From Methanoregula sp. (GTDB taxonomy: Archaea > Halobacteriota > Methanomicrobia > Methanomicrobiales > Methanospirillaceae), in the NCBI RefSeq assembly GCF_028712425.1, contig NZ_JAQTQD010000001.1:23414-87413 (forward strand): a stretch of DNA of 64,000 nt. Direction: 5' to 3'. The notes under the pieces were generated by a model. That model did no database searches. It was not told the DNA's origin and saw nothing but the letters and a program-made list of their open reading frames with translations. This document shows, one piece after another, positions 1,292-55,264 of the stretch (its first letter is position 1; each line of letters opens with the position of its first letter). The translations under genes were made by a program, and so were the position numbers.

Positions 1292-1293
1292 TC

Positions 1294-1833: not shown

Positions 1834-1848
1834 GGCGCGGAGCATACC

Positions 1849-5922: not shown

Positions 5923-6016
5923 CCTCTATGATCCCTGCCAACCGAAATCCTGCAAATAGCGACGGGGGTCTATGTACCCCGGGTTCACATGCCGCCACGT
6001 ACCCGCGGAGCCTGAG

Positions 6017-7852: not shown

Positions 7853-7924
7853 TCGGGTATTGCCTGTAACAGCAGACAATCCGCACCCGGCAGCCTTTGC
7901 AGGAATGATGATGAGGACAAAACG

Positions 7925-8563
7925 ATGCCGATGAATATGGATTCCCTGCAGGCATCCTGGGAAGCAGATTACCGGAAGAAGGGGCGATTGTACGGCGGTT
8001 CGCCGCGGCAGCTTCCCGCCTTCCCTTCCGGATCCCGGGTCCTTGATCTTGGCTGCGGTGACGGCAAATCCCTGGTATCCATGGAGGACAGGGGCTGGCA
8101 CGTGACAGCTGTCGACTTCTCTCCTGCGGCAGTTTCTCTTGCAAGCGAAGTGGGCGGGAATCCGGCCAATGTTGATTGTATTGTTGCAGATGCCCTGCAG
8201 CTCCCCATAAGGAAAAATTCATTTGATATCGTGACGGCCATCCACCTGCTGGGGCACGTTTCTGTGGATGGGTTGCGCCGTATTTCGCGCGAGATTGACC
8301 GTGTACTCCGGCCGGGCGGAACCCTGTACGCTGTGGTTTTCTCGCAACAGGACTTCCGCTGCGGCACTGGCACCGAGGTTGAGCCGGCTACCTATGCCCG
8401 GGGAAACAGTATCATCACCCGGTATTTCTCGGAACCGGATGTTATCGCGATCTTTCCGGGATATACCGTACGGACTGTTGAGCATATCGAATGGACGCTC
8501 CGCGTACGGGGGAGAGAGTATCCCCGTTCCGAGATTACTGTCCTGTTCTCGAAGCCTCAATGA
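7925..8563 (+). CDS. class I SAM-dependent methyltransferase
   Basis: 212 aa with SAM-binding motif I VLDLGCGDG and a post-I acidic residue (VTAVDFS). Confidence 0.75.
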   Translation: MPMNMDSLQASWEADYRKKGRLYGGSPRQLPAFPSGSRVLDLGCGDGKSLVSMEDRGWHVTAVDFSPAAVSLASEVGGNPANVDCIVADALQLPIRKNSFDIVTAIHLLGHVSVDGLRRISREIDRVLRPGGTLYAVVFSQQDFRCGTGTEVEPATYARGNSIITRYFSEPDVIAIFPGYTVRTVEHIEWTLRVRGREYPRSEITVLFSKPQ

Positions 8564-8624
8564 ACGTTTTTCGTGGATCATTTTTATGGTATCCGCACCC
8601 ATTTTCTCTCACAGGAGAATCCCG

Positions 8625-9932
8625 ATGACGAAGAGATACCTGACATTGTGCATTGCTGCCCTCATCCTGCTGATATGTATTCCCGGAGCATCCGGTCTCG
8701 GTGGCGATGAAGGATGGATTACGGTCTATTGTAATGTGGATGGAGCCTCGGTGTACTTTGACGGCAAGTACATGGGAGAGATCAGCGGCGGGTCTTACAC
8801 GGCCCTGGTATACACGACCGGTGCCCCCTATTCCACGGCAACGGTGGAAAAGAGCGGGTATTTGCCTGCCACAGCTTCCCTCACCATGCCCAAAAAAGGC
8901 CAGACAACAACAGTCTACACAACCCTGAACCCGGTCGTGACCCCGGTCCCGGTGCGGTACGGGTCCATCTTCGTGAGTTCGCAGCCGTCGGGTGCGGAGA
9001 TCTATTTCAATGGCGATTACCGCGGTCTCTCGCCCCTTACCATTGCTGATGTCTGGCCCGGGACGTATACAATCCGGGCAGAGAAGACTGGTTACCAGGA
9101 TTATTCGACAACAGCTTATGTCTCCTCCGGAACACAGACAACCGTCCACTGTCCGCTGACTCCCCATGTGACAAGCGGCTCATTGTACGTGATATCCACA
9201 CCTTCCGGCTCCAGTATTTATCTTGATGCCGCATACAAGGGAAAAACACCCCTCACGATCAGCAATATTGCTGCGGGCACCCATATCCTTGAAGTTGACC
9301 ATGCCGGGTATTATGACTGGAAATCAACGGTGAATGTTCCTGCTGGCGGTACCAGGACCATTGATGCAACGCTGAACCCGATGCCGTCATCCACAAGCGG
9401 TTGGATCTATGTCTCTTCAAGTCCCGGCGGCGCATCAGTAACACTTGACGGCGCCATCATGGGTGAGACCCCGTCATCGGGTTCCCTGAAACTGAATAAC
9501 GTCGCCACGGGAACTCACGCCGTTGTCCTGAACCGCCCCGGTTACCTGCAATATACCGCAACGGTCTCGGTCTCTCCCAATACCGTGACAGAAGTGAGCG
9601 CGCTTCTCCAGCCGACCGCAGCTCCCACCGGATCCGGCGGCCTTACCATCACGTCCACCCCGGCCGGGGCCAATGTCTTCCTCGACAATGCCTTTGTCGG
9701 GATCTCTCCGCTTACCCTGCCCGACGTCACGGCCGGGACGCACACGGTGTCCATGAAGCTTGACGGGTACCAGGAGTACTCTGTCTCAACACAGGTGAAC
9801 AGTGGCGCGGTCAGCACGGTCTCGGCAGCCCTTACCAAAGTGACACCAACACCAAAGTCATCACCGGCCCCTGTCATTGCCGGTATAGCAATCATTGGTG
9901 CAGTCCTTCTCCTCCTCCGCCGGAAGGATTGA
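8625..9932 (+). CDS. secreted PEGA-domain repeat protein with a C-terminal membrane anchor
   Basis: The ORF track begins at 8268, but a signal-like MTKRYLTLCIAALILLICIPGASG starts at ATG 8625. There are about 5 PEGA-like repeats (SxPxGAxVxLDG...G.TP). The C-terminal TM is IAGIAIIGAVLLLLRRKD. Confidence 0.75.
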   Translation: MTKRYLTLCIAALILLICIPGASGLGGDEGWITVYCNVDGASVYFDGKYMGEISGGSYTALVYTTGAPYSTATVEKSGYLPATASLTMPKKGQTTTVYTTLNPVVTPVPVRYGSIFVSSQPSGAEIYFNGDYRGLSPLTIADVWPGTYTIRAEKTGYQDYSTTAYVSSGTQTTVHCPLTPHVTSGSLYVISTPSGSSIYLDAAYKGKTPLTISNIAAGTHILEVDHAGYYDWKSTVNVPAGGTRTIDATLNPMPSSTSGWIYVSSSPGGASVTLDGAIMGETPSSGSLKLNNVATGTHAVVLNRPGYLQYTATVSVSPNTVTEVSALLQPTAAPTGSGGLTITSTPAGANVFLDNAFVGISPLTLPDVTAGTHTVSMKLDGYQEYSVSTQVNSGAVSTVSAALTKVTPTPKSSPAPVIAGIAIIGAVLLLLRRKD

Positions 9933-39780: not shown

Positions 39781-39935
39781 CGTGCGGGTGAGGATATCCT
39801 TCCGGGGCACCCGAGAATACAAGAGAGTAACCTGTTGTTCCTGCCGTCAGAGAAGAGTATATTTCATTGCAGATCCATCACTACTGGTGGACATGCCGGG
39901 GAGCGTTATCCCGGCGGTTATCTTTGGGGGAATGG

Positions 39936-42038
39936 ATGACGTTGCAGGAAGTGCAGTATGATGATCCATCGCTCTATATCAACCGCGAACTGAGCTGGAT
40001 ACGGTTCAACCGGCATGTGCTGGATGAGGCTCTGGACGAGAGCCACCCCCTCCTTGAACGGGTGAAGTTCCTCTCTATCTTTGCCAACAACCTGGACGAG
40101 TTCTTCATGATCCGGGTCTCAGGTCTCCAGCGCCAGCTTGCAAAAGGTGTGCTCAAGGCGCCACCAGACGGCATGACAGCCGGCCAGCAGCTGGATGCCA
40201 TTCATACCATGCTCCTCCCGGACCTCCAGGCACAGGACGAATGCTGGCACAACGAATTGCTGCCCAAACTTGCCGAACAGGGGATTCTCCTGCGGAAATA
40301 TGATGCCCTGACTGACCGGCAGAAATCGGCAATGGACCGGTTCTTTGTTGAAGAGATCTTCCCGGTCCTCACCCCGCTTGCGTTCGACAGCTCGCACCCG
40401 TTCCCGTTTATCTCGAACCTCTCCCTCAATCTTGCCATCATTGTCCGGGACCATTCCGGCAAAGAGTTCTTTGCCCGGGTCAAGGTCCCGACCAAGCTCT
40501 TCCCGCGGCTGGTCAGGATTCCCGGGGCGGATGGCAGTCTGAAGAACGACGACTCCCTTGTACAGTTCGTGTATCTCGAGGAGATCATTGCCGCACACCT
40601 GGACATGCTCTTCCCCGGGCTCGATGTCATCGCCTCGTTTCCGTTCCGCATCACGCGGGATGCCGACCTGGAGATTGAAGTGGACGAGGCTTCCGACCTC
40701 CTCACCACGGTCGAGGAGGTTGTGGAGCAGCGAGCCCGGGGAAAACCGGTTCGCATTGAAGTCGAATGTTCCATGCATGACGGTATCTGCCATACACTCG
40801 GCTCAAAACTCGGTGTGCCCAAATCCATGATCTACCATGTTGCCCACCCGGTGGGAATGGCCGACCTGATGCAGCTGATGTCGCTTGACCGCCCGGAACT
40901 CAAGGACACCCCCTTCCTCCCCTCCATGCCGGATGACCTTACCGATGACATGGACGTTTTCTCAGCGATACGCCGTCACGACATTCTCCTCTATCACCCG
41001 TATGACAGTTTCACGCCGGTCGTCAACTTCATCCGGCAGGCAGCCCGCGACCCGGATGTGCTCGCGATCAAGATTACCCTCTACCGCGTTGGTTCGAATT
41101 CACCGATTGTCAATGCCCTGATGGAAGCACGGGAGAATGGGAAGACTGTGGCAGCCCTGATCGAACTCAAAGCACGGTTCGATGAGGAGAACAATATTGG
41201 CTGGGCCCGGGCACTGGAACGGCTTGGCGTCCACGTCGTGTACGGGGTTGTCAACCTGAAAGTCCATGCCAAACTCTGCATGGTGGTCCGGCGCGAGAAA
41301 GACGGGATCCGCCGGTACATGCACCTGGGGACCGGGAACTACAATGCAGCAACCGCCCGGATTTATACCGATTTCGGGCTCATGACCTGTGATCCCGGTA
41401 TTGGGGAGGACGTTGCTAATCTCTTCAATTTCCTTACCGGGTATGCCCGCATCGAGGAGTACACCAAGCTGATGGTGGCCCCGGTCACGATCCGGAAGAT
41501 GATCCTTGAAAAGATCGAGAGGGAGATCGCCCGCCAGAGATCGCATGGCGACGGGCATCTCATCTTCAAGATGAATGCCCTTGTCGACGCAGCCTGTATT
41601 GCGGCTCTGTACCGTGCTTCTGCCGCCGGCGTGAAGGTTGACCTCCAGGTACGGGGGATCTGCTGTCTCCGCCCGGGACTGCCCGGGATCAGCGAGAACA
41701 TCCGCGTATCGGCGATTGTCGGTCGATTCCTCGAACATGCCCGGGCCTACTACTTCTATAATGGCGGGAACGAGGAACTCTGGCTGGGCAGTGCAGACCT
41801 CATGCCGCGGAACCTTGACAAGCGCGTGGAAGTCCTCTTCCCGGTGGAAAACGAACCGCTGAAAAAAGCTGTCATCAAGACCATCCTGCCGGTCCAGCTG
41901 GGCGATAACTCCAAGTCAAGAATTCTTCTGCCGGACGGCACCTATTCCCGCAGGAGACCGGACAAGAGCGAAGAACCGTTGAATGCACAGTCGTGGCTTG
42001 TCGGGCACAGGGGTGCATGGTATGACCGTCATTCCTGA
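39936..42038 (+). CDS. ppk1: polyphosphate kinase 1
   Basis: INRELSWIRFNRHVL, NLDEFFMIRV, and two PLD-like HxK-type segments (KVHAK, HLGTGNYN). Start taken at ATG 39936. Confidence 0.9.
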   Translation: MTLQEVQYDDPSLYINRELSWIRFNRHVLDEALDESHPLLERVKFLSIFANNLDEFFMIRVSGLQRQLAKGVLKAPPDGMTAGQQLDAIHTMLLPDLQAQDECWHNELLPKLAEQGILLRKYDALTDRQKSAMDRFFVEEIFPVLTPLAFDSSHPFPFISNLSLNLAIIVRDHSGKEFFARVKVPTKLFPRLVRIPGADGSLKNDDSLVQFVYLEEIIAAHLDMLFPGLDVIASFPFRITRDADLEIEVDEASDLLTTVEEVVEQRARGKPVRIEVECSMHDGICHTLGSKLGVPKSMIYHVAHPVGMADLMQLMSLDRPELKDTPFLPSMPDDLTDDMDVFSAIRRHDILLYHPYDSFTPVVNFIRQAARDPDVLAIKITLYRVGSNSPIVNALMEARENGKTVAALIELKARFDEENNIGWARALERLGVHVVYGVVNLKVHAKLCMVVRREKDGIRRYMHLGTGNYNAATARIYTDFGLMTCDPGIGEDVANLFNFLTGYARIEEYTKLMVAPVTIRKMILEKIEREIARQRSHGDGHLIFKMNALVDAACIAALYRASAAGVKVDLQVRGICCLRPGLPGISENIRVSAIVGRFLEHARAYYFYNGGNEELWLGSADLMPRNLDKRVEVLFPVENEPLKKAVIKTILPVQLGDNSKSRILLPDGTYSRRRPDKSEEPLNAQSWLVGHRGAWYDRHS

Positions 42039-43638
42039 TGCCCTGCCCGGCTCTGTCGGCCAGTGCTGGTTTGCGACGCAGAGACTGCCCCCGCTTCTTG
42101 AAGCATTCGCAAAGGAGATCGAAGGTGTTCGCAGTGGAGACGATATTGAATACATCCATCGCATGCGGGTTGCATCCCGGCGTCTCCGGGCCGCACTCCC
42201 CCTCTTTCGTTCGTGCTTTCCGGCAAAGCAGTATGCCCGCTGGATGCAGGAGATCGCAACAATCACGCGCGCACTGGGAAATGCACGGGACGCGGATGTC
42301 CAGATTGCGTTTCTGGTAAAATATCGGAAAAAGAGTTCTGCAGTACGGAATAAAAAAAATCCTGAAGGATCTCCGCAGGAAAAACCGCTCGAACCGGCGA
42401 TTGCTTACCTCCTGCAGGACCTGAAAAAAAGCCGGCAGCAGCTCCAGGACCGGGTCCTGTCAGCACTTGATTCCCTGGAGAAGAGCGGGATTATAGATGA
42501 GATGCGGGCCGCGTTTGCTCTCAGGATGATATCCTGCCGCAGGACCCCGGTACAGTCTGCTGCCTACGGGATCCCGACAATTGCAGCTTTCCGGATTGTA
42601 TCGCGTCTCAATACGATGTGTTCGTTTGGAGACTGGGTGTCGCATGCTGATGCTGTTGCCGAACACCACGCCATGAGGATAGCGGCAAAAAAGCTCCGGT
42701 ACACCATGGAAGTGTACGGCCCTGTTTACCAACGGGGGCTGAAGCGATCTCATGCACAGGTAAAATACCTTCAGGAGATCCTGGGAGATCTCCATGACTG
42801 TGATGTCTGGATCGACCATGTCACCCTGCTCCTCCTCCGGGAACGCGGGCGCATGAGGAGTGGTCGCAATGATAAGCACCCGGATACGGCAACGCTCGCC
42901 AGCCTGCGCTTGTTCCTCGCGGCCCGGGAGAGGGAACGTACGCTCCTCCACCGGAGGTTCATGCGGTACTGGCAGTCTCTTATCGACAATACAGCATGGG
43001 ATCAACTTCGCATGGATCTCACGCAAAAGAGAAAGCAGATGTTTATCCCTGCCGGGGATGGGACAAAGAAGGATATCTGCACCGTGTGCAATACCCTTTC
43101 AGCATCCTATCCGGAAGGGCTTTCCCATCACAAAACCGTTACCCGCCTTGCGCTCATGTTCTTTGACAGCCTTCTTCCGCTTCATGCACTGACCCGGCAT
43201 GACCGGAACCTGCTCGAATGCGCAGGGATGCTCCATGATATGGGCTGGCAGGAAGGGGCACGAAAGCACAATATCCGGTCGGCCCGTTGGATCTTTTCCG
43301 AGGAATCCCTTCCCCTGGATATCCGTGACCGGAGCATTGCAGGACTCATGGCCCATGCCCACCGCGGGCGCGTGAAGATCGAATCCCACCCTCTCTTCCT
43401 GCTGCTCACGAAAGAGGACCAGAAAAAGACACTCCTGCTGTCCGCAATTCTCCGTGTCGCAGACGGGCTCGACTATCTCCATACCGGCACGGTGCAGGAA
43501 GTTCATTGTATCATTGGTGAAGCAGAAGTCACTTGTGATGTTATCTCCCTCTCAGATTGTACTAAGGAGAAAGAACGGGCAGGGTCCAAATCCGCCCTGT
43601 TCGCCCGCGAATTCGGCAGGGAGCTGGTATTCCGGTGA
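42022..43638 (+). CDS. CHAD-domain protein fused to a C-terminal HD domain
   Basis: The CHAD signature HRMRVASRRLRAAL is repeated (HAMRIAAKKLRYTM). The C-terminal HD segment is AGMLHDMGW. It overlaps the ppk1 end by 17 nt. Confidence 0.75.
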   Translation: MTVIPDALPGSVGQCWFATQRLPPLLEAFAKEIEGVRSGDDIEYIHRMRVASRRLRAALPLFRSCFPAKQYARWMQEIATITRALGNARDADVQIAFLVKYRKKSSAVRNKKNPEGSPQEKPLEPAIAYLLQDLKKSRQQLQDRVLSALDSLEKSGIIDEMRAAFALRMISCRRTPVQSAAYGIPTIAAFRIVSRLNTMCSFGDWVSHADAVAEHHAMRIAAKKLRYTMEVYGPVYQRGLKRSHAQVKYLQEILGDLHDCDVWIDHVTLLLLRERGRMRSGRNDKHPDTATLASLRLFLAARERERTLLHRRFMRYWQSLIDNTAWDQLRMDLTQKRKQMFIPAGDGTKKDICTVCNTLSASYPEGLSHHKTVTRLALMFFDSLLPLHALTRHDRNLLECAGMLHDMGWQEGARKHNIRSARWIFSEESLPLDIRDRSIAGLMAHAHRGRVKIESHPLFLLLTKEDQKKTLLLSAILRVADGLDYLHTGTVQEVHCIIGEAEVTCDVISLSDCTKEKERAGSKSALFAREFGRELVFR

Positions 43639-45230
43639 GTGAAGGGGAGATCGGGCCCGAAGGACGGGTTGTCACCTTCATTGACCTTGGAACGAACTCG
43701 TTCAGGATGCTCATTGTCCGCATCAACGCGAACCACTCGTATACGATCCTCTCGCGCCAGAAGCAGCAGGTGCGTCTCGGAGAAGGAGCGTTCGAAGATG
43801 AGGAGATTACTCCTCCCGCCATGGATCGCGCGGTTATCGTTGCAAAGAAGTTCGTGGATCTTGCGTGCACATTCCATACCGAGGAATTTGTGGCAGTAGC
43901 CACGTCAGCGACACGGGAAGCCACTAACCAGAATGAGCTGCTGCACCGGCTCCGGCAGGAAGCCGGACTTGATATACGGATCATCTCCGGCCGCGAAGAG
44001 GCACGCCTCATCTACCTTGGTGTTGCGGGCACCGTTAATCCTGCCAACCGGACAATCTTCTGTATCGACATCGGTGGCGGCAGTACCGAAATTGCGGTTG
44101 GCGATGCACGGGGATACCACCATCTTGACAGTTTCCCCATCGGGGCGATACGGCTTGCCAATCTCTATCCCTGTCCTGATGAACGGGGAATTATTACACC
44201 CGCCCAGCAGAAACAGATCCACCAGCATGCCAGAGACGCAATAGGCCCCGTGCTGGTTCCCGTACGGTCGTTGAAGCCCGATTGCGCCATCGGGAGTTCC
44301 GGCACGATCATGAACCTTGCTGAGATCGCAGGAAAAGCGCTCCATTCCGGTTCAGTGCCATTACAAGGATCAAATGGTCAGACGCTGAAATACAAGGAGC
44401 TGAAGAAGGTAATCGAGCTCCTGTCTTCCATGACCCTTGAACAACGCAGGCGGGTGCCCGGGATCAACCCGGACCGGGCGGACATCATCGTTCCCGGGGC
44501 CATTATTCTCGAAGTATTCATGAAGGAACTGGGATTGTCTGAGATCTCTGTCACCAATCGCAGCCTGCAGGACGGACTTCTTGCCGATTACCTCTCACGG
44601 ATGGACACCTTTCCCCTGATGGGAGAACTGACACCCCGGCAGCGGAGCGTCCTCCAGCTGGGACGGTCCTGCGGGATCAATGAAGTCCATGCCCGGACGG
44701 TCACTATGCTTGTTCTTGAGATGTTCGACTCGGCAAAGACCAAGAAACTCCATGACTTTTCCGATGCCGAGCGAGAACTCCTTGAATATGCAGCATTTCT
44801 CCATGATATCGGGTCATTCCTGTCGTTCACCAACCACCATGCGCACTCGTATTATATTATCCGGAATTCCGAACTTCTCGGGTTCAATGAACGGGAGGTG
44901 AACCTTATCGCCATGCTGGCCCGGTTCCACCGTAAAAAGAGCCCCCGGAAAAAAGATTCCTTTGTCACGGACCTGGATCCCCGGGACCAGCGCGCTCTCC
45001 TCCTGCTCTCCTGTTTCCTCCGGCTGGGCGAGAGCCTTGACCGGAGCCATGCTGCCCTTGTGCAGCATGTCCGTTTCTCTGCTGCCGGCAAGAATACGGC
45101 ACGGCTTGAGATCCAGGCCCGGGGGGAATGCCAGCTGGAGATGTGGGGGATCGAGAATGAGAAACGTGCATTCGAGAAAGCGTTTGGCCGAAACATTATC
45201 TTTTCAGTTGTGGAGACCACACCTTCCTGA
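43635..45230 (+). CDS. ppx: Ppx/GppA-family exopolyphosphatase with a C-terminal HD domain
   Basis: ASKHA motifs DLGTNSFRM and DIGGGSTE. HD segment AAFLHDIGSF. The GTG start overlaps the CHAD stop by 4 nt. Confidence 0.85.
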   Translation: MSEGEIGPEGRVVTFIDLGTNSFRMLIVRINANHSYTILSRQKQQVRLGEGAFEDEEITPPAMDRAVIVAKKFVDLACTFHTEEFVAVATSATREATNQNELLHRLRQEAGLDIRIISGREEARLIYLGVAGTVNPANRTIFCIDIGGGSTEIAVGDARGYHHLDSFPIGAIRLANLYPCPDERGIITPAQQKQIHQHARDAIGPVLVPVRSLKPDCAIGSSGTIMNLAEIAGKALHSGSVPLQGSNGQTLKYKELKKVIELLSSMTLEQRRRVPGINPDRADIIVPGAIILEVFMKELGLSEISVTNRSLQDGLLADYLSRMDTFPLMGELTPRQRSVLQLGRSCGINEVHARTVTMLVLEMFDSAKTKKLHDFSDAERELLEYAAFLHDIGSFLSFTNHHAHSYYIIRNSELLGFNEREVNLIAMLARFHRKKSPRKKDSFVTDLDPRDQRALLLLSCFLRLGESLDRSHAALVQHVRFSAAGKNTARLEIQARGECQLEMWGIENEKRAFEKAFGRNIIFSVVETTPS

Positions 45231-45253: not shown

Positions 45254-46114
45254 TCAACCGAATTTTTTTAACGCTGCTTCGGCTTCAGAAGCAACCTGCA
45301 GATTGCTGCTGTTCAGAAATCTCGTCAGGGGGGTAATTGCCCGGCGGTTCCCTATCTCGCCAAGTGCCCAGACGATTGCCGTGATCCACTCCCTGCCCGT
45401 TTCGAGCAGGGCAATGAGTGGTTCCGTAGCATCCTGCGCCCGGAGTGCTCCAAGAACAAGCACGGCACGGGTGACCACCTGTTCGTGCGAGTCCCCAAGC
45501 GCTTCGATCAGGGGTGGCACGGCAGGTTCCCCCATGTGAACAAGTGCATCAAACGCTGCCTCCCTAACCCTCCATAAAGGGTTTTCCAATCCTATGATCA
45601 GGAGACGAATTGTTTCGGTATCCGGTGAATCCCCCATTGCGTGAATTGCGGAAAAGCAGATTTCAGGATCGCCGGATTCTAACTGCCGGGCCCATTCAGC
45701 ACGTTGTTCCCATACCTTGCCGGTTGTCATATCCTCCGGAAAGGAGATTCCCGGTATCCGTTTCAAAGCACCCTGCAGGGCGCTGTTTTTCTTGGTATCG
45801 GAAACCGTACCGGCCCCGAGTGCCGCTGCCCAGGTATCCACGGCCCATTGTGCAGCCTCATCAGAAAAGGCCAGTTCGTCCTCCAGGCGTTTTTTCAGGA
45901 AACCCCGGAACAGTTCCGGGGGAAGCGAATGACGGGGGGAGAGGAGGTCGGCCGGAATTTGCTGGCGCACGGCATTGACCAGGACGAAGATCTCCTGGCG
46001 GCACCGCGGGCAGGTGTCGCGAAGCAGCGCTTCGCACCGCAGCGGATCAAACGCAAGGGATGTCCCGTGGCGGGAAACAAGGGAAAGAAGGATGCGGGCT
46101 GCTTCTTCGTTCAT
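45254..46114 (-). CDS. HEAT-repeat protein with a distinct N-terminal domain of about 100 aa; fourth gene of the vWA-PP2C-kinase operon
   Basis: C-terminal HEAT/PBS-lyase-like repeats (LENPLWRVREAAFDALVHMGEPAVPPLIEAL...). The start ATG overlaps the kinase stop (ATGA). Confidence 0.7.
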   Translation of the reverse strand: MNEEAARILLSLVSRHGTSLAFDPLRCEALLRDTCPRCRQEIFVLVNAVRQQIPADLLSPRHSLPPELFRGFLKKRLEDELAFSDEAAQWAVDTWAAALGAGTVSDTKKNSALQGALKRIPGISFPEDMTTGKVWEQRAEWARQLESGDPEICFSAIHAMGDSPDTETIRLLIIGLENPLWRVREAAFDALVHMGEPAVPPLIEALGDSHEQVVTRAVLVLGALRAQDATEPLIALLETGREWITAIVWALGEIGNRRAITPLTRFLNSSNLQVASEAEAALKKFG

Positions 46115-47472
46115 GGTGTCACCATGGAGTCTGGTGCGGTAATGGTTATGGTGACTCCGTCAATCATGATCGCGGCCCCGGGATTCAGCGGTATGGCCCG
46201 GCCCGGGGGAACAACTGATTTGCTGCCATCAGGGAATTCAGCATTCCATGGCGCCCTTGTAGCATTCCGGATTCCGGATGCGCCGGGAATAGCAGGGTGG
46301 GGGACAACAATGCCAATGATTGCGGACCCGTCATCATTGGCCGGTGACAAGGTGACATGCCTTCGCCGGAGTGTGGTGCCGTTCGAGAGGGCGATGAATG
46401 TTTCGGCGGAATGACGACGAACAACCAGAAACGGGGGATGGGGAAGAGAGGTACTACAGTTCCAGCAGGTACCCGGATTGCCCGACAAGTCAAGAAAATT
46501 CTCGGCACGGCACCGCGGGCAGGAAATGATCCGGTCCTTGATTCTGGAGAAGAGGTTCTGCCATTCTCCTTCAGTGACCCTTCGTGAGGGATCCTTCAGC
46601 CCGTCAGTAAATGCGCGGATGAACATATCCTGCAGGTCGGTCGGACACAGGCTCCAGCGTTCCCGTGCAATCCCATAATCAGGATCTGTGGGCAGGCGGT
46701 TATCCGGGTTTTCCGGGTCGAAGACAAAGATCGGTGTTTCCCCGTACACTTTTTTCTTTGCCGGGATGTCCCAGCAGTGGAAACGGTATTCCATCTCACC
46801 GTGGAACGGATGGTGCCACACCCAGAGGTAGAATAGGAGGATGGCAAGTGAGTGGAGATCGGTCTGGGTTGAGGGATCGGCCTCGCCACGGATGATCTCG
46901 GGTGCCATGTACTCCATCGTACCCCAGACCTGGCAGCGGGACTGGCGGTTCACTCCCACATTGTCATTATCGCAGATCAGGATATCGCCGGAGACGGGCT
47001 CAAACATGAGGTTGCCTGCGGAGATATCGCGATAGCAATGACCGGAGAGGTGGAGTGCACGATAGCTGTTTGCGAGCTGGTACGAGATTTCAGACAGCGA
47101 TGAAAAGTTCGGGACAGGTTTGAGGTGTGCCCAGACCTCGCCCAGTTCCGCAAATTTCTGTGTGTCGATCCGTGCCATAAGGTACCCGAACTGGCCCGAT
47201 CCCTCCCGTGTGACAAGGTCCAGCGGCCAGATAAACCGCCGGCCCGCTGCTCCGAACGGTGGGCCGGTCCGGACGAGATAGAGAATTGCCGATCGCTGTT
47301 CGGCTGTTGCCTGTTCAGGCTTGTACCATTTCACTGCCTGGTAGCCCTGTGGCCCTTCGACAAGGTACACTTCTCCCTGCGTTCCCTCGCCAAGTTTCCG
47401 GAGTACATGCAGTTCCGTGCCGGAAAGTTCAGCTTTTACGCGCTGTCCGATTGCGAGAGGCATTACCAGCAC
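46111..47472 (-). CDS. Ser/Thr protein kinase with a C4 zinc ribbon and an FHA-like C-terminal domain
   Basis: Gly loop GEGTQGEVY, Lys in AVKWY, catalytic loop YRDISAGN, ICDNDNVG in place of DFG, MEYMAPE, Zn ribbon CPRC...CWNC, and an FHA-like tail ending MIDGVTITI. Confidence 0.8.
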   Translation of the reverse strand: MLVMPLAIGQRVKAELSGTELHVLRKLGEGTQGEVYLVEGPQGYQAVKWYKPEQATAEQRSAILYLVRTGPPFGAAGRRFIWPLDLVTREGSGQFGYLMARIDTQKFAELGEVWAHLKPVPNFSSLSEISYQLANSYRALHLSGHCYRDISAGNLMFEPVSGDILICDNDNVGVNRQSRCQVWGTMEYMAPEIIRGEADPSTQTDLHSLAILLFYLWVWHHPFHGEMEYRFHCWDIPAKKKVYGETPIFVFDPENPDNRLPTDPDYGIARERWSLCPTDLQDMFIRAFTDGLKDPSRRVTEGEWQNLFSRIKDRIISCPRCRAENFLDLSGNPGTCWNCSTSLPHPPFLVVRRHSAETFIALSNGTTLRRRHVTLSPANDDGSAIIGIVVPHPAIPGASGIRNATRAPWNAEFPDGSKSVVPPGRAIPLNPGAAIMIDGVTITITAPDSMVTP

Positions 47473-48377
47473 TCCGTGAGACCGGGGACAGTCTCATCTT
47501 TATCCTGTTCCTGTTCAGACCGGGATAAATCTGTTTCATGGGGATTGATACTGACAAAGACGATGGTCATGTCATCCCCGCTTGCGAGCTCGGAATACCG
47601 GTCAAGCCATCCTGCCATCGAGCCGGCAACGCTTTCGATCCCAAACTCTTTCACCCGGTCAACGAGGCTTTTGATAAAGGTAAAAAATTCCCCGCCTTCC
47701 GTTGTGTCGAATGAATCTGAAACGCCATCGGTTGCAGCGATAAGGACCCCGCCATCTCCCCGGTCAAGGGTTGCGGTACGCCAGAGAAGGTGGGCATCGC
47801 GGGATGAGAGCGAGTGGGTCTCTTTTCCCACGAGCCGGGTCTCCATGGGAATGGGGCATTCAATGGAGCCGTCTGGTCGCACAAGGACAATATCCCCGTC
47901 ACCGATCTGGCCGATGAGGATGGTATCGGCAACGATAAGGGATGCAATGAGGGTAGAGCCATATCGGACATAGGGATCCGTTTCCGGGCCGGCTATCTCC
48001 CGGCCGGACGCGTCAGACTGCACATATTCCCTCCATCGGCGGGTAACTCTCCTTGGGAAATCCGCTTTGAACTCCGAGCGGAGAATATGCGAAGGGATTG
48101 TATGAACATGCATCCGGTGGAAACTGGTCAGTTCATCCATGCCTGCCTGTACCCCGAGAGATGCTCCGGTCCTGCTCTGGTCATGCCGGGGATCGCCATG
48201 CCCGTCAGCAATGGCTACCGCGATCCAGGGAATCGCACCCGAGGCACCGCTGCAGATGGCATAAGCATCTTCGCAGGGACGGGAGAGCCGGAGGTGGGAT
48301 GCCCCTCGACGGCTGCACCCGAACGCCCAGCCAAGCGTTGGATCGGATGCACAGAGGAACTGTCGGTGCTCGGGCAT
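47463..48377 (-). CDS. PP2C-family protein phosphatase
   Basis: CEDAY, IADGHGD and AATDGVSD metal-binding motifs. It overlaps the kinase start by 10 nt. Confidence 0.75.
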   Translation of the reverse strand: MPEHRQFLCASDPTLGWAFGCSRRGASHLRLSRPCEDAYAICSGASGAIPWIAVAIADGHGDPRHDQSRTGASLGVQAGMDELTSFHRMHVHTIPSHILRSEFKADFPRRVTRRWREYVQSDASGREIAGPETDPYVRYGSTLIASLIVADTILIGQIGDGDIVLVRPDGSIECPIPMETRLVGKETHSLSSRDAHLLWRTATLDRGDGGVLIAATDGVSDSFDTTEGGEFFTFIKSLVDRVKEFGIESVAGSMAGWLDRYSELASGDDMTIVFVSINPHETDLSRSEQEQDKDETVPGLTECW

Positions 48378-48384
48378 GAACGAT

Positions 48385-49188
48385 CTAGAATAAATCGGTG
48401 TTGGAGGTTATCATCGGGGGTGGCGATTCAAGGGATACGTTCGAGGTGTCGTCCATACCGGTGCTGCGGCTCCTTCCCCGTGACGAGGCAACCGATGCCG
48501 ATACAGAGGCCCACTTGATATAGGTGACCAGTTCCTCGGGCGAATGCGCTTTGAGGAGCCCGATCTGGTCCTGGTTGACAAATTTTAAGAGTTCGGGCTC
48601 ATTATAATCAGACTCGTCACCGATAGCAATAGCAAGCCGGACCGCTTTTACTCCCCAGGGGATTTTCGAGAGTTCGGCAATGGCATTGTCGTATTCATCG
48701 CGGGGATCGGTACAGAAACCATCGGAGACAAGGATGCAGACCGGGGGGAGTCCCCGGCGGGGCATGTGTTCGATTGAGAGTTCACCGGTGAGGAGGTTGA
48801 TTGCCTTTGCCGTTGCGGTCAGGCCGGAAGTCTCAAGCTCGGGCCAGGTAAAATCCTCGAGCGGGACAGCTTCGGGGCCGACATGCCACGAAGCATCATC
48901 GGAGAATTTGATTGCCCGCATGAAGATCTCGACCTGGGGATACGCGGCAACAGCCTTCTGGACTTCAGGGATTGCCTCGCGGATCGCCTGGTTCAGGGTC
49001 GCTATCTTCTTGCCCCGCATAGAGTCGGAACAATCTGCGAGCCAGAAAAAGTGCAGCTTCTTTTTGGCAACCTGCCCATCGGGAATCGGAATTGTATCGT
49101 CTATGATAATACCCCCTCGCTTACCATTCAATCTGCCAGATAACCATATAAGTTCACCGTTTTCGGGCTTTTTGCTGAAGGCGGACAC
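48385..49188 (-). CDS. von Willebrand factor type A (vWA) protein, TerY-like
   Basis: MIDAS DCSDS (DxSxS), a later LTAT, and a VSDG motif. The C-terminal tail is Ser/Thr/Arg-rich. Its stop lies 7 nt before the PP2C start. Confidence 0.75.
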   Translation of the reverse strand: MSAFSKKPENGELIWLSGRLNGKRGGIIIDDTIPIPDGQVAKKKLHFFWLADCSDSMRGKKIATLNQAIREAIPEVQKAVAAYPQVEIFMRAIKFSDDASWHVGPEAVPLEDFTWPELETSGLTATAKAINLLTGELSIEHMPRRGLPPVCILVSDGFCTDPRDEYDNAIAELSKIPWGVKAVRLAIAIGDESDYNEPELLKFVNQDQIGLLKAHSPEELVTYIKWASVSASVASSRGRSRSTGMDDTSNVSLESPPPMITSNTDLF

Positions 49189-49236: not shown

Positions 49237-50622
49237 TTACAATTTCTTGAGTGCCTGCACGAGTTTCCCGACGGTTTCCTGTGCATCACCATAAAGCATT
49301 TTGGTATTGTCCCGGTAGAACAGGTCGTTCTCGATCCCGGCAAAGCCCCTGCCCTGGCCGCGTTTCAGCACGATGACGTTCTTTGCCTGCTCGACATCGA
49401 GGACCGGCATACCAAAGAGCGGGCTGCCCTGGCGGTGTGCTGCCGGGTTGACCGTGTCGTTGGCACCAATGACAAGAACGACATCGGTTGCCGGAAACTC
49501 AGGATTGATCTCGTCCCGGTCAAAGAGCTGATCGTACGAAACCCCGGCCTCGGCAAGCAGGACATTCATATGCCCGGGCATCCGCCCTGCAACAGGATGG
49601 ATGGCGAACTTGACCGTGATGTCCTTCTTCCCCAGCAGGTCCGTGAGTTCCTTGACCTTCTGCTGGGCCTGCGCAACGGCCATACCATAGCCGGGCGCGA
49701 TGATCACTTTGGTTGCATAGGCAAGGAGGATCGCGGCATCGTCTGCCTCGATCGCCTTCATGCTGCCCTTCACTTCCCCGCCGCTCTCGTCCTTTGCACC
49801 AAATGCCCCAAAGAAGACATTTGTCAGGGAACGGTTCATGGCTTTTGCCATCTGGAGAGTCAGGATTGATCCGGCAGCCCCGACAATGACACCGGCAACG
49901 ATCATGGCATAGTTGGGGGATGCAAATGAGAACCCGTCCAGTGCCACCGCAAGGCCGGTGAATGCATTGTACATCGAGATAACTACCGGCATATCCGCTC
50001 CACCGATGGGAAGAGTCATCAGGAGCCCGAAGCCGAGTGCCAGGACAAAGAAGAGCGGCAGGTACATGGAGACTGCCAGCGGGATAAATGCCGGCTGGAT
50101 GATGATGCAGGCCCCGGAGATCGCCGCAAGGAGGAAGATGAGAAGGTTTAAGACCTGCTGCCCGGTAAACGAGATGGCCCGGGCAGGCATCCAGCCCTGG
50201 AGTTTTAAGAAGGCGATAATGCTGCCCGAGAAGGAGACAGCACCAATGAGGCCGCCGACAACTGCAAGGGAACCGGTGACTTCTGTCGGGGTGCCGAGGA
50301 GCACAACCGCGGAGATGCAGGCTGCTGCGCCACCGCCCATGCCATTATAGAGAGCAATCATCTGCGGCATGTCGGTCATGGCAACCCTCTTGGCTGCAAT
50401 ATACCCGAACCCGCCTCCAATGACAATGGCAATCGCGATGAGGGCAAGGTTCGTGAGGTTGGGCATGAAGAATGTCACGATGGTTGCAATGAACATCGCG
50501 GCACCGGCCCAGACAATGCCGGTCCGTGCTGTAAGCGGGTGGCTCATGCGCTGGAGGCCCACGATGAAGAAGAAGATCGTGGCAATGTAGACCGGTTCGA
50601 TGAAAAACGAGAGATCGGTCAT
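49237..50622 (-). CDS. pntB: NAD(P) transhydrogenase beta subunit
   Basis: 461 aa with a membrane N-terminal half and a C-terminal NADP(H)-binding dIII (GYGMAVAQAQ, ANDTVNPAA). Confidence 0.85.
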   Translation of the reverse strand: MTDLSFFIEPVYIATIFFFIVGLQRMSHPLTARTGIVWAGAAMFIATIVTFFMPNLTNLALIAIAIVIGGGFGYIAAKRVAMTDMPQMIALYNGMGGGAAACISAVVLLGTPTEVTGSLAVVGGLIGAVSFSGSIIAFLKLQGWMPARAISFTGQQVLNLLIFLLAAISGACIIIQPAFIPLAVSMYLPLFFVLALGFGLLMTLPIGGADMPVVISMYNAFTGLAVALDGFSFASPNYAMIVAGVIVGAAGSILTLQMAKAMNRSLTNVFFGAFGAKDESGGEVKGSMKAIEADDAAILLAYATKVIIAPGYGMAVAQAQQKVKELTDLLGKKDITVKFAIHPVAGRMPGHMNVLLAEAGVSYDQLFDRDEINPEFPATDVVLVIGANDTVNPAAHRQGSPLFGMPVLDVEQAKNVIVLKRGQGRGFAGIENDLFYRDNTKMLYGDAQETVGKLVQALKKL

Positions 50623-50623
50623 T

Positions 50624-50935
50624 TTACGCCTCCTTTCCGGGCTTCCTGCCGCTCTTGTCGAACATCTGGAGGATCCGTTCCGTCACGACATATCCGCCGG
50701 TGACGTTCGCAGCGCCGAGAACCACCGCGACAAAGCCGATGACCTGTTCGAGCGGGGTTGTGGCAAGACCGAGCGCCACCATGGCGCCTACCAGCACGAT
50801 ACCGTGAATGAAGTTCGACCCGCTCATCAGTGGCGTGTGCAGGATGACCGGCACCCGGCTGATGACTACGTACCCGGTGAACGCTGCAAGCATTGCGATA
50901 TAGATGGCTGTCCAGAACGCACTGATCTCGATCAT
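50624..50935 (-). CDS. pntAB: NAD(P) transhydrogenase alpha subunit part 2 (membrane)
   Basis: 103 aa with 3-4 TM segments, located between pntAA and pntB with 1-4 nt junctions. Confidence 0.8.
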   Translation of the reverse strand: MIEISAFWTAIYIAMLAAFTGYVVISRVPVILHTPLMSGSNFIHGIVLVGAMVALGLATTPLEQVIGFVAVVLGAANVTGGYVVTERILQMFDKSGRKPGKEA

Positions 50936-52146
50936 GGTTTTACACCCCCGATGATATTACGAGCCGGAGCAAAGCATACCTCGCCGGCATGTGTGAGCAG
51001 GCTTGCGACAAGAATTTCGTCCGTGTAGTCTTTTACGAGAGAGCCTTCTTTATTGACAAGAAGCGCGAGAAATGCCTGGAGGTTCTTTGCATACATCTGG
51101 CTGGAGTGGAACGGCACGCGGGCAGGGAGGTTCCTTGGCCCGATGATAGTGACGCCGTGCTCCTGGATTGTTTTCCCTGCCTGGGTCAGTTCACAGTTTC
51201 CTCCGGTCTCTGCTGCGAGATCCACGATGACCGCGCCGGGGCGCATCCGAAGAACGGTCTCTTTCGTGATGAGGACCGGAGCTTTCCGGCCGGGGATGGC
51301 CGCGGTGGTGATGACGATATCTGCCCGGGCAACAGCAGCGGAGACCATCTCCTGCTCGAGTGCTTTCTCTTCCGGGGTGAGCTCGCGGGCATATCCTCCC
51401 TGACCCTCGGCATTGATCTCAAGTTCCAGGAACTTTGCTCCGAGACTGCGGACCTGCTCTCCGGCTGCGCGCCGGACATCATAGGCCTCAACCAGGGCGC
51501 CAAGGCGCTTTGCCGTGGCAATGGCCATCAGGCCGGCAACACCGGCACCAAGGATGAGTACAGTTGCCGGGCGGATCGTCCCGGCAGCCGTGGTAAGCAT
51601 GGGAAGGAATTTCGGGCAGTTTCCTGCACCCAGTATCACTGCGGAATATCCGCCGGCCGTTGCCTGAGAGCTGAGGGCATCCATGCCCTGGGCGCGGGTG
51701 ATACGCGGGACCAGCTCAAGGGCAAACGAGGTGATCTTCCGGTCGCGCATCGCTTTTATGGCATCGATATTTCCTGAAGGGTTCATGAACCCAACAAGGA
51801 GAGAACCTTCGGAAACCTGCTCCACATCGCCAACAGTCGGGGGCTGGACACAGAGAACGATGTCAGCGCCCTTTAAGAGATCCGCCCGGCTTGCTGCAAT
51901 CGTTGCACCAGCTGCAGTATAGAGTTCGTCAGGATAAAAGGCGCCTGTGCCGGCGCTGTGCTCAATCCTGACCTGGTGGCCGGAACTGACCAGTTTCTGG
52001 ACAACATCGGGAACGGTCGCAACGCGCAATTCGCCTTCAGCCGATTCCTTTACCACAGCGATAACGGCCGGTCTTTCCCCTGAACCGGACGGAGCGCTCA
52101 CGAGAGCCACCCGGCCTGACTGTTTTTCACAACTAAGGACAATCAA
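50932..52146 (-). CDS. pntAA: NAD(P) transhydrogenase alpha subunit part 1 (dI, alanine-dehydrogenase-like)
   Basis: Rossmann motif ILGAGVAGL. The track start is TTG 52146, and the real start may be one of the downstream GTGs (52110 or 52101). Confidence 0.8.
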   Translation of the reverse strand: MIVLSCEKQSGRVALVSAPSGSGERPAVIAVVKESAEGELRVATVPDVVQKLVSSGHQVRIEHSAGTGAFYPDELYTAAGATIAASRADLLKGADIVLCVQPPTVGDVEQVSEGSLLVGFMNPSGNIDAIKAMRDRKITSFALELVPRITRAQGMDALSSQATAGGYSAVILGAGNCPKFLPMLTTAAGTIRPATVLILGAGVAGLMAIATAKRLGALVEAYDVRRAAGEQVRSLGAKFLELEINAEGQGGYARELTPEEKALEQEMVSAAVARADIVITTAAIPGRKAPVLITKETVLRMRPGAVIVDLAAETGGNCELTQAGKTIQEHGVTIIGPRNLPARVPFHSSQMYAKNLQAFLALLVNKEGSLVKDYTDEILVASLLTHAGEVCFAPARNIIGGVKP

Positions 52147-52188: not shown

Positions 52189-53823
52189 TTACAGTCTTTT
52201 TATCTTACGCACCCGGACCGCTACTCCGCGCTTCGAGCGGTGCATCTCTCCCGCCGGAAGTGCTGCACGGCCGGTTGCAAGGGCGCGCTTTCCGGTAACA
52301 AGGACCTCGTCCCCCTCCCGGATAGCCGGATCAGCGCCGGTAACCCCGGGAACGAGGACGTCACCTTCCGGGATAAAATCATCGATGGTAACGCGGTAAC
52401 ATTCCGGGAGGAGCGCCCAGCCGTCGAATGTCGGGCGGATGAGACCGGTGCCGGTATCGATGGAGAAGAGCTGGGTATTGCCCCTGCTGTAAAAGAGTTC
52501 GGGAAACCGGCCTCGCGCAACAATGCCCTTTGTTACAACATCGGCCCCGAACTGGTATGAAAGCATACCATGCAGGCGGTCATCCCTGATCCGCCGTTCT
52601 CCGGCAAGGGCTGCGTCAAGCGCATTGAGCGCGGCAGGCCCCGCCGGGTCACCGGCACAGGAATATTCAAGCGTGATACCGCAGGCTTCAGCTGCCTGGC
52701 GGGCAACCTGGAGAGCGCCGCCATCGAGGTGTGCAATGATCCGCCGGTACGGGAATTTTGCGAAATAGCGGGCCAGGATATTGGATAAAACAGCACATTC
52801 CTCGGCGTCCCAGTACCCGGTGACCGGGACATCGTAGTGCCCGGCAGGGTAGATGCATTCGAGCTCGCGGGGAACCAGCCCGAGCGGCGATGTGATGATC
52901 AGCTCGTGCGCCCGCCCGCCGATTGCTGCCTGGAACCTCCGGTGACTCTGCGAAAGCGAGTAGGGTTTTTTTGCCGAGCAGGGCAGGAGCACTGCCACAT
53001 CGCACTTCTCTGGCGGGATGTAGCGGGTCAGGACCCGTTCGGCAAAGCGCTGCACTTCAGCGCGCTGCATTGATTCGCCTGAGTTGGCCCGCATGATCAC
53101 AGCCCGGGCAATTGGCTGGGCTGCCTCCATGAACGCATAGTGACGGTCCAGGTGGCGGAGGATCGCGACCTGGTTTGCATCCATGCGGCAGCGGGACTCG
53201 ACCAGATCGCGCAGTTGTGCCTGCCGGATGAACCGGGTGATGAGGGCAAGTTCCTGACGGAGGGCTTGGCGGTTGTGCTCCCGCAGGTCACCAGCCCTGC
53301 AACCGGGACAGGTGCAGATGCCGTCACCCAGCGCAGTGGCGGGGAACTCTCCTTCCGGGGTACAGAAGATCCCCTGTGCGGAGCGGAGGTCCACGGCGGT
53401 GTAATCGAAGAGGTCGAAACCCGAGTAGCAGAGGATGGCTGCGGTTGACGGAAGGGCTGCCGCAGGGCCATACCATGCGGTATCGGCCGGGGTCTTCTCC
53501 TTGAGAGAGACCAGCCAGTTCACGTAGTTACGGGGATTGGCAAATGAGGTATGCCAGTTTGTCACGAGAACACAGTCCCCGCTCTGTGCCGTATTCTTCA
53601 ATGCGGGATGAATGATGACCGGCCCCCCGGGAATGGCGGGGGGGAATTCTTCTGCAAGGTTTGCCGGTGCGGCAAGAGGCATGTTGACAGATGTGGGCGT
53701 GACCAGTGCAGGGAAGATGGTCTCTGTCTCCGCTGCTGCCGGGAGGTTAATGGAGGTTGTGCCGGTATCGAGAACCCCGGTGCGGGCAAGACCGTCCCTT
53801 CTCCGGATATCAAACTTCGTCAT
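52189..53823 (-). CDS. arcS: archaeosine synthase alpha subunit-like protein (ArcS; DUF5591 plus C-terminal PUA)
   Basis: The [11 protein letters not shown] motif and a C-terminal PUA-like segment ([17 protein letters not shown]). The start at ATG 53823 overlaps the tgtA end by 14 nt. Confidence 0.7.
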
Positions 53824-55264
53824 CGGTAATCTCCATGCCGGAAAGTTCCTGCCGGACGATCCCTTCCCAGCGGGAGCTGCATGCAAGCACAATCCTGCTT
53901 CCGGGATGCGTGTCAGCAAGTATCCGGATACCCTGGCATCCCTTGCGTACCATGGCCGCATCCCATTCCGGGATCTCGCAGGGGCCGATGGGGAACGTCT
54001 CTTTCAGCTCCACCGGGTAGGGACCAAACGGGGGCCGGAAGAAAAGCGTGTCATCATAACCTTCCGAAGGTTTGCCATCCAGGACAACCAGTACCTTTTG
54101 CCCCAGCGGAAGCCGGGCCAGCTGCTGCTGGTATCGGATCACTTCGGTGCGGAGGCAGCTCTCATCGCCGCGGTAAAAAAACCGCCGTTTGGATACCCGG
54201 TCATGGCCGGCAAGCGTTGGGGCATGGGAGAGAAGTTCGCGGTACCCGTCAAGCAGGCGCGGGTGGCTCCGGCACCGTTCATCAACAAGTTCCCAGAGTG
54301 TCCCATCAACAATCGCCTGCCGGACCCGGGAGATCTCGGCAAGCGTAACATACAGGTTATGGAGCGCGAGAAGGCGCTCCCGGTCCGGGGCGGCCCGGAG
54401 TTCTTCAGCAGAATGAGACCGGCAGACACTACAGGCACAGGGGAGATCGACAAGGTCCTCGATCCGGTATGAGCCATGAGCGGTTAGGTATCGGCCGTCC
54501 TTTGCATAGAGCGCGTACGCGGCCGAATCGAAGAGATCGCATCCCATTGCCGTTGCAAGGGCAAACATCGAGGGATGACCGGCACCAAAGAGATGGACAC
54601 AAGCGGATGGGGAGAGGGCGCGTTTTGATGCCATGACAACCCGGACGAGATCGCGATACCGGTATGATTCCATGAGCGGGACAACGGCACCAACAGGGCA
54701 GAACGGGAAGCCGAGGTCCATCACCTCGCGTGCAGACTTTTCACGGAGATCCTCAAATGTCCCACCCTGGACCGGCCCGGCAAGGGGTGCATCGGGGCCA
54801 AAGACCTCTTTAGCCTCGGCAAGTCGCTGGAGCGTGATGGCAAGATCGCGCGCTGTCGTGTCACGGTCCGCTGTTGGAGATGTAGGGATATCGAGGGGAA
54901 CCCAGATGTCGCTTCCGATATCGCGCTGGAAGGAAAGTGTTTCTGTGTTGGTGATGGATACTTCACCATAAACCGAGAGCTGGAAGGACCCGGAGTCGGT
55001 CATAATAACGCCACTAAAGTCAAGGACCGAATGAAGCCCTTCAGCAAGGGCCCGTTCTCGGAATTGTCTGCTCTGGGAAAAAATATAGGCATTCGTGATG
55101 AGGGCCTCGACTCCCATGGACGCCATCTCCTTCGGGGTCACGAGCTGGAGGTGGGGGTTAATGACCGGGAGAAGAGCGGGAGTCCGGATCGTCTTTTTAC
55201 CAACCGTCAGTTTGCCGATCCGCCCGGCAATATCGCTGTACAGGCTCTCAAATGCAATGGCCAT
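53810..55264 (-). CDS. tgtA: tRNA-guanine(15) transglycosylase (archaeosine TGT), short form without an obvious PUA domain
   Basis: TGT-like N-terminus [19 protein letters not shown] and Zn site CxCxxC (CACSVC). 484 aa. Confidence 0.8.

Follow-up and report, generated by a model that had tools for sequence, protein, structure and literature searches.

The stretch of DNA analysed here, called the window throughout, comprises 64,000 nucleotides (nt) of a Methanoregula sp. contig (NZ_JAQTQD010000001.1, positions 23,414 to 87,413 of assembly GCF_028712425.1) and carries a cluster of four genes at 45254..49188 whose products resemble the components of a Ser/Thr phosphorylation switch of the TerY-P class. 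All features of the cluster lie on the minus strand, and positions are those of the window. Each gene was recognised as an open reading frame (ORF). The first (48385..49188) encodes a vWA (TerY/ArnB-like) protein of 267 amino acids, assigned by means of a family profile, and the second (47463..48377) a PP2C-type Ser/Thr phosphatase of 304 amino acids, assigned by Pfam family PF13672. They are followed by the gene for a Ser/Thr kinase with a zinc ribbon and an FHA-fold domain (46111..47472, Pfam Pkinase; 453 amino acids when read from a GTG) and by a gene for a protein of 286 amino acids that combines an N-terminal domain, here termed ND, with HEAT repeats (45254..46114). In line with the initial annotation, the four ORFs are tightly packed: the vWA stop codon TAG is separated by a 7-nt spacer from the ATG of the PP2C gene, and the kinase stop codon and the start codon of the fourth gene overlap in the sequence ATGA. 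The 10-nt overlap that had been reported between the PP2C and kinase genes is valid only if translation begins at the GTG. In the database, the window kinase and its Methanoregula homologues are annotated with 450 amino acids, which places the start at an ATG at position 47463, three codons inside, and leaves an overlap of 1 nt (TAATG). This ATG is probably the true start, in which case the 10-nt overlap does not hold. The PP2C and kinase genes are coupled with either start codon.

The Pfam VWA model scored below its threshold on the first protein (E 0.012). When a profile of 30 members of the vWA family was compared with all PDB sequences, it matched ArnB (8S05_A, E 1.4e-9), the Sulfolobus protein (PMC12852372), and its paralogue ArnE/vWA2 (5A8J, E 1.1e-5), and these were its sole PDB matches at E ≤ 0.01. 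The alignment spans the vWA core alone, i.e., residues 33-209 of ArnB. It is this ArnB match that settles the earlier vWA assignment, for which Pfam remained sub-threshold. The same profile detected E. coli YegL with 26.6 bits (E 3.6e-5 at Z=177,635). The metal ion-dependent adhesion site (MIDAS), previously described as intact (DCSDS), comprises the DxSxS motif D52-C-S54-D-S56 (49021..49035) and, according to the alignment, is completed by T124 and D156; all five residues proved invariant in the 30-sequence family alignment. Behind the core, residues 228-267 (48388..48507) form a Ser/Thr-rich C-terminal tail ending in D-L-F, which we consider a candidate phospho-acceptor and docking peptide. 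Fifteen of these last 40 residues are Ser or Thr, with S228 invariant and S236 nearly invariant in the family. The tail is thus present as had been proposed, and it recurs over 64 homologues, the majority of which terminate in D-[VL]-[WF] and some archaeal ones in E-P-F. YegL of E. coli has a similar Ser-rich tail. In several Methanoregula relatives (L006:4232-4471 and others) the vWA ORF is 212 amino acids long and begins within the MIDAS motif. Since the upstream frame is open and conserved in these relatives, unusual start codons or an ORF-calling artefact are suggested rather than truncated proteins.

The phosphatase and kinase assignments were both borne out. PP2C_2 (PF13672) matches the phosphatase with an E value of 5.7e-31, the residues D37, D58-G-H-G61, D160, D217 and D268-D269 are at least 95% conserved among 69 sequences, and all metal-binding Asp residues are kept. 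It shares 24% identity with PphC of E. coli (E 3e-8). Pfam Pkinase covers the core of the kinase (E 8.6e-17), whose catalytic domain extends from about residue 20 to 300 (46573..47415) with a GxGxxG loop, K48, Y-R-D149, N154, D168-N-D170 and an APE motif. Residues G30, K48, D149, N154, D168, D170, N171 and A190-P191-E192 are invariant in the family alignment, and Y147 of the atypical YRD motif is at least 90% conserved. Homology with E. coli YegI extends over the catalytic region (BLAST E 1e-9; 79 bits with the family profile), and YegI likewise has a D-x-D motif instead of DFG. In YegI, the enzyme is active, its D-S-D motif is essential and a change to DFG abolishes activity (bioRxiv 10.1101/819920). 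With a cut-off of E ≤ 1e-30, the full-length kinase family is abundant, amounting to 664 clusters at 50% identity; the best matches listed align over nearly the full length. Two representatives of the family, P0270 and P0301, are PP2C-kinase fusions.

Two further domains follow the catalytic one. The zinc ribbon claimed by the initial annotation is formed by four conserved cysteines (C318, C321, C336 and C339; 46456..46521), and its profile weakly matches the zinc ribbons of Rpo12/RpoP and S27e. The beta-rich C-terminal domain (residues ~346-446, 46135..46437) was modelled by AlphaFold2 (AF2) with a predicted local distance difference test score (pLDDT) of 92. In a Foldseek search of the PDB with this model, all 50 best matches were FHA domains, including that of ArnA, with E values from 2e-3 to 5e-2 and target-normalised template modelling scores mostly of about 0.5-0.67. 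Pfam FHA (PF00498) gave no match to the kinase tail at E ≤ 0.1. N403 is invariant, P393 and W409 are invariant or nearly so, and one His is frequent. Taken together, the model supports the FHA-like nature of this domain at the level of the fold.

The C-terminal part of the fourth protein consists of HEAT repeats of the PBS-lyase type (residues ~145-286, 45257..45682), as evident from Pfam (HEAT_2 2.1e-21, HEAT_PBS 5.2e-15, HEAT 4.2e-8). Full-length homologues were found on Methanoregula-type contigs, and every named match belonged to Methanoregula. A relative from the Methanomicrobiales, whose kinase is 63% identical, encodes directly after the kinase a beta-helix protein of 494 amino acids instead of a HEAT protein, and the match between the two (E 4e-23) is limited to residues 9-123. 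Alignment of the fourth proteins across loci likewise limits conservation to the first ~105 amino acids. This segment, ND (residues 1-105, 45800..46114), is the sole part conserved across loci, and the uncharacterised N-terminal domain of about 100 amino acids noted at the outset is therefore real and conserved. An AF2 model, built from database proteins, shows an all-alpha bundle of seven helices (pLDDT 89.8). No Pfam family matched ND, and among 44 members no family covering ND was common to them; NCBIfam gave no significant match, nor did ND match any PDB sequence, and comparison of the fold yielded no neighbour, either in BFVD or in the PDB, where the best E value was 0.65. ND is a newly recognised domain and a candidate new family for Pfam or InterPro.

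What follows ND is a lineage-specific variable module, and we refer to the whole protein as ND-X. HEAT bodies occur in Methanoregula(ceae) loci only, other Methanomicrobiales have a beta-helix or FGE-sulfatase body, and in bacteria we found WD40, LRR, TPR, Sel1, YARHG and others. WD40 was present in 10 of 44 ND proteins. The partners, which vary by lineage, also include beta-helix/NosD, two kinds of LRR, a TcaA NTF2-like domain, Big_2 together with SH3, and regions with multiple transmembrane segments. Several ND proteins have a transmembrane helix directly after ND, so that the variable part would lie outside the cell. These architectures were drawn from the loci; a homologue search with the ND profile returned 28 short proteins and provided no census of architectures. 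The initial annotation had seen a fixed fourth HEAT component. The fourth gene is indeed conserved and ND is its fixed part, but the HEAT body is swapped elsewhere, and the expected co-occurrence of a HEAT gene with the trio in other lineages was not found.

ND is an obligate fourth component of this subfamily. With a hidden Markov model (HMM) of ND, the gene was detected in 59 of 65 loci that had been retrieved via the kinase and contained the complete trio, and in three of the six loci without it the contig breaks off at the expected place of ND. The reverse approach led to the same result: a scan of metagenome contigs with ND alone, for which a 7-sequence alignment was used, yielded 32 loci of at least 7 kb, and all 32 contained trio genes (kinase HMM match in 30, vWA in 27, PP2C in 27, all three in 23). 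Two short proteins consisting of ND only also reside within trio loci. On the Prevotella plasmid NZ_CP091789, a protein encoded after PP2C (L085:8437-9336) was missed by the ND HMM, although inspection by eye reveals an ND-like helical N-terminus. Should this be a divergent ND, as is possible, the ND counts are lower bounds.

Gene order varies over the 65 loci. PP2C always comes directly after vWA, and ND is usually found beside the kinase; in seven of the 65 loci it comes after vWA-PP2C instead. Several ND paralogues can be present in a single locus. In one metagenomic lineage (L106, L110 and L116, about 1178-9201; L107-L109, L111 and L115), ND genes alternate with genes for membrane proteins of 403-565 amino acids that have kept the C-terminal FHA-fold domain and have no kinase domain, with PP2C at the edge of the locus. 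One Bacillales locus also encodes a kinase-less protein that retains the FHA-fold domain. E. coli YegI is devoid of this domain, and a search for ND in the E. coli yegI locus was negative. The position of ND beside the kinase, its pairing with kinase-less FHA-fold proteins and the absence of both from the YegI system suggest a partnership between ND and the FHA-fold domain.

A genome scan with a 10-sequence kinase alignment and one genome per species returned at least 581 confirmed loci. Among the best 80 of these, about 20 stem from Methanoregula(ceae) or other Methanomicrobiales and about 60 from bacteria, among them Desulfobacteraceae, Thiomargarita, Geobacillus, Clostridium, Planctomycetota, Chloroflexota, Acidobacteriota, Lachnospiraceae and others, with identities of 38-57%. 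The notion of a distinctively archaeal system was therefore abandoned. We encountered the module very rarely on plasmids (2 of 72,556 records), in phage genomes (one partial match) and on IMG/VR contigs (9 of 2.9 million). In other Methanomicrobiales and in bacteria the four genes reside in unrelated surroundings. Across the 80 loci we found no conserved restriction, nuclease or ter neighbours and no broadly conserved fifth gene, and the neighbours that do recur are restricted to lineages, e.g., a small TerY_C protein in Firmicutes. This metal-binding protein (PF15616, ~120-150 amino acids) is encoded beside kinase, vWA and PP2C in nine Firmicutes loci and on the Prevotella plasmid (examples are L035:3741-4190 and L085:4585-4950) and is absent from the archaeal loci.

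A TerY-phosphorylation triad was reportedly proposed by Anantharaman, Iyer and Aravind in 2012. The TerY-P class is defined by a TerY-like vWA protein, a PP2C phosphatase and a kinase that bears a fused zinc ribbon (PMC11090510, PMC4978471). Because all three window proteins are homologous to E. coli YegL, PphC and YegI, respectively, we assign the trio on the basis of sequence similarity to this known class, as had been suggested initially. The likeness to YegL-PphC-YegI comprises the MIDAS-containing vWA protein with its Ser-rich tail, the PP2C, the D-x-D kinase with a C-terminal zinc ribbon and the organisation in one operon, and it extends to the TerY_C protein beside some bacterial members. 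In contrast to the three-gene composition of TerY-P, the window subfamily has ND-X as a fourth gene. Its kinase carries the FHA-fold domain after the ribbon, whereas YegI has transmembrane segments and Gao-type kinases are described with an OB fold, and no ter, restriction or CoCoNuT genes are located nearby. PADLOC v2.0.0 gave no match to the window vWA and PP2C proteins, which is uninformative since the E. coli YegL/PphC/YegI control was equally negative; for the same reason, its library probably lacks a TerY-P model.

Two further systems deserve comparison. Kaur, Burroughs, Iyer and Aravind (eLife 2020) described a kinase bearing a zinc ribbon as well as a domain rich in beta strands, a PP2C and a standalone vWA protein beside actinobacterial GAP1-N2 GTPase systems. 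This description fits the three proteins found here, down to the zinc ribbon and the beta-rich C-terminus, and in this respect the architecture is not new. However, the beta-rich domain was not called FHA-like, the loci studied here are not GTPase-linked, and a fourth component of the ND type is not mentioned in that work. The Deinococcus radiodurans operon DRA0331-0334 encodes a vWA protein, a Ser/Thr protein kinase, an FHA protein and a KI-FHA-PP2C protein and, by description, is also a self-contained operon for phospho-control with vWA, kinase, FHA and PP2C modules. It differs in that canonical FHA domains are found on separate proteins or on the phosphatase, the kinase is a transmembrane protein and ND-X is lacking. 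What is new with respect to the known trio is the obligate ND-X, the link to ArnB and the FHA fold adopted by the tail of the kinase.

With a probability of roughly 0.55, we favour the interpretation that the locus is one copy of a widespread, mostly bacterial, four-component Ser/Thr phospho-switch of the TerY-P class, in which ND-X provides the input and which serves as a housekeeping switch. ND-X would be the input component, its variable domain binding a signal while ND would dock on the non-catalytic zinc ribbon/FHA-fold module of the kinase. The D-x-D kinase, presumed to be active like YegI, would then phosphorylate the Ser/Thr-rich vWA tail, by analogy to ArnC and ArnB, and PP2C, judging from its intact catalytic Asp residues, would reset the switch. 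Phosphorylation of the tail may alter the partners of the vWA/MIDAS module, as phosphorylation of ArnB alters its grip on ArnA. The downstream output would not be encoded in the operon. A role of ND-X as a sensor is indicated by its hypervariable repeat or binding C-termini, some of them behind a transmembrane helix, because this is the pattern expected of sensors. All four Methanoregula proteins are cytosolic. Since, in addition, the chromosomal site is fixed, an effector is not encoded and the family is scarce on mobile elements, we regard the Methanoregula copy as more likely to be a housekeeping switch, for stress or regulation, than a mobile defence cassette. We infer the interactions, the substrate and the direction of signalling in this scheme from the genes, domains, catalytic residues, homologies and co-occurrence observed.

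Several observations speak against this interpretation. In the FHA-fold domain of the kinase, the Arg and Ser residues of a canonical phosphothreonine pocket are missing, as mapped by eye, which renders phospho-reading by this domain doubtful. Of the FHA-like phosphopeptide reader originally postulated, the FHA fold therefore persists in the AF2 and Foldseek analyses, but the reader function finds support neither in a Pfam FHA match nor in the pocket residues. The kinase-independent pairing of ND with FHA-fold proteins comes essentially from one lineage of near-identical contigs and one Bacillales locus, and of 140 ND genes that share their locus with an FHA-fold gene, only 89 directly adjoin it. 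ND has no conserved Ser or Thr and could equally likely be an output adaptor. Finally, the variable sensor-like domains, the rare fusions of the kinase to caspase or TIR domains and the antiphage activity reported for TerY-P-like modules are hallmarks of conflict systems and argue against a purely housekeeping role.

These hallmarks lead to the alternative that the locus is a TerY-P-type antiviral defence system, which we regard as possible though doubtful. ND-X would then be a pattern receptor for a virus component and the activated kinase would phosphorylate many host proteins, leading to growth arrest, while PP2C and the vWA protein would hold the kinase off in uninfected cells; the outcome would be abortive infection of the kind known from Stk2. 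A role as antiphage systems in their own right has been reported for TerY-P-like modules (Gao 2020, quoted in PMC11090510), and WD40, LRR, TPR, HEAT and FGE-sulfatase C-termini of ND proteins are repeat types typical of immune sensors. The presence of several ND paralogues within one locus fits this picture, as do the rare kinase-family members with an N-terminal caspase (Peptidase_C14) domain (P0307) or a TIR domain (P0366) and generic PADLOC matches between the window kinase and defence kinases, among them mad6 and PD-T4-6. On the other hand, none of the four genes encodes an effector, and the Methanoregula site is stable, situated between housekeeping genes and not evidently a defence island. 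The near absence of the family from plasmids, phages and viral contigs and the lack of conserved restriction or nuclease neighbours across the 80 loci also disfavour defence. Moreover, the kinase of the tested Gao system has a different C-terminus, an OB fold according to Bell et al.

In the most far-reaching formulation, ND-X proteins would be the receptors of a widespread four-component kinase sensing system of bacteria and Methanomicrobiales, possibly immune in nature, in which ND couples interchangeable sensors (WD40, LRR, TPR, HEAT, beta-helix or FGE-sulfatase) to a degenerate FHA domain of a YegI-type kinase and phosphorylation of the ArnB/TerY-like vWA protein serves as the read-out. 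We put this forward tentatively.

In principle, ND-X could also act at the opposite end of the pathway, as an output scaffold or target. ND would be captured by the vWA MIDAS, e.g., via Asp33, or by the phosphorylated vWA tail, and the variable domain would bring lineage-specific clients to the switch. MIDAS sites of vWA domains bind acidic ligand residues, and ND has a near-invariant Asp, D33, together with its lack of conserved Ser/Thr. The seven loci in which ND comes after vWA-PP2C rather than beside the kinase are also consistent with such an arrangement. We nevertheless consider it unlikely, because ND genes are more often found beside the kinase or an FHA-fold gene, ND is also found alongside kinase-less FHA-fold proteins, and extracellular C-terminal domains behind a transmembrane helix look like sensors and not like clients.

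The relationship with ArnB raises the question whether the system is the direct equivalent of ArnA/ArnB and controls the expression of the archaellum or other surface structures. In Sulfolobus acidocaldarius, where this pair represses motility together with the kinases ArnC/ArnD and the phosphatase PP2A, the zinc finger of ArnA binds unphosphorylated ArnB and its FHA domain phosphorylated ArnB (PMC12852372). ArnB and ArnE are the sole solved relatives of the vWA family, the C-terminal phosphorylation proposed for the vWA protein has its counterpart in ArnB, and the zinc ribbon and FHA-fold domain of the kinase correspond to the domain pair of the ArnA reader. However, the zinc finger-FHA reader is a separate protein in Sulfolobus, whereas its counterpart is fused to the kinase here, the operon contains no stand-alone FHA gene and the FHA pocket is non-canonical. 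The phosphatase of the window is an operon-encoded PP2C, and ND-X comes in addition. With 267 as compared to 387 amino acids, the vWA protein lacks the beta-sandwich that the vWA domain interrupts as well as the helical ArnB_C domain of ArnB; the alignment covers the core only, and the region behind the core is a 40-residue Ser/Thr-rich tail. Most members of the family are bacterial, and no archaellum genes flank the locus. A direct equivalence thus appears improbable, and the phospho-switch with ND-X as its input remains our preferred interpretation.

Inspection of the flanking genes, which were named by reading translations and from homologous loci and not by an HMM scan, showed that the pntAA-pntAB-pntB transhydrogenase genes (49237-52146, minus strand) lie directly upstream of the cluster. 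The pntB gene ends 48 nt upstream of the vWA gene on the same strand, and its stop codon is followed by a T-rich stretch. On the other side, three ORFs on the plus strand (39867-45230) converge on the HEAT gene; their translations resemble the polyphosphate kinase Ppk1, a CHAD-domain protein and a Ppx/GppA phosphatase, and besides the window, at least nine Methanoregula-type loci have these three genes next to the cluster. Beyond pnt, two ORFs of 590 and 484 amino acids that overlap by ~150 nt (52189-55264, minus strand) both resemble genes for tRNA-guanine transglycosylase (TGT) or proteins of the archaeosine pathway. They are perhaps a tgtA/arcS-like pair, and the downstream ORF has probably been given too early a start. 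As previously stated, there are no ter genes among these flanking genes (Ppk, CHAD, Ppx/GppA, pntAA-AB-B and the TGT-like gene). The site of the Methanoregula cluster is thus located between the TGT-like gene and Ppx-CHAD-Ppk1. The pnt operon adjoins the cluster in six relatives, is missing in L009 and L015, although both the TGT-like gene and Ppx were detected there, and was not detected in four further loci with less complete flanks, so that the pnt block gives the impression of an insertion that varies between genomes. The initial annotation was right that the cluster follows pntAA-AB-B on the same strand in the window, but this adjacency is not conserved even within Methanoregula. That the cluster extends the pnt operon or the polyphosphate genes and serves redox or polyphosphate regulation, as the common strand, the 48-nt gap and the recurrent Ppx-CHAD-Ppk1 genes might imply, is highly improbable and was rejected, since the synteny is variable, pnt is missing in two loci, other Methanomicrobiales and all bacteria have the genes in unrelated contexts and the T-rich stretch follows pntB; pnt is a neighbour and not a component.

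If true, the interpretation of ND-X as a receptor would provide TerY-P-class systems, one version of which has been reported to act against phages while another is carried by E. coli K-12, with a defined input arm and with a mechanistic link to the ArnA/ArnB switch. A constant ND adaptor combined with a binding domain that can be exchanged indicates the probable point of entry of the input. The link between the vWA family and ArnB, together with the pair of zinc ribbon and FHA fold in the kinase, suggests a common design, of which the bacterial TerY-P systems and the archaeal phospho-switch that has been studied best are variants.

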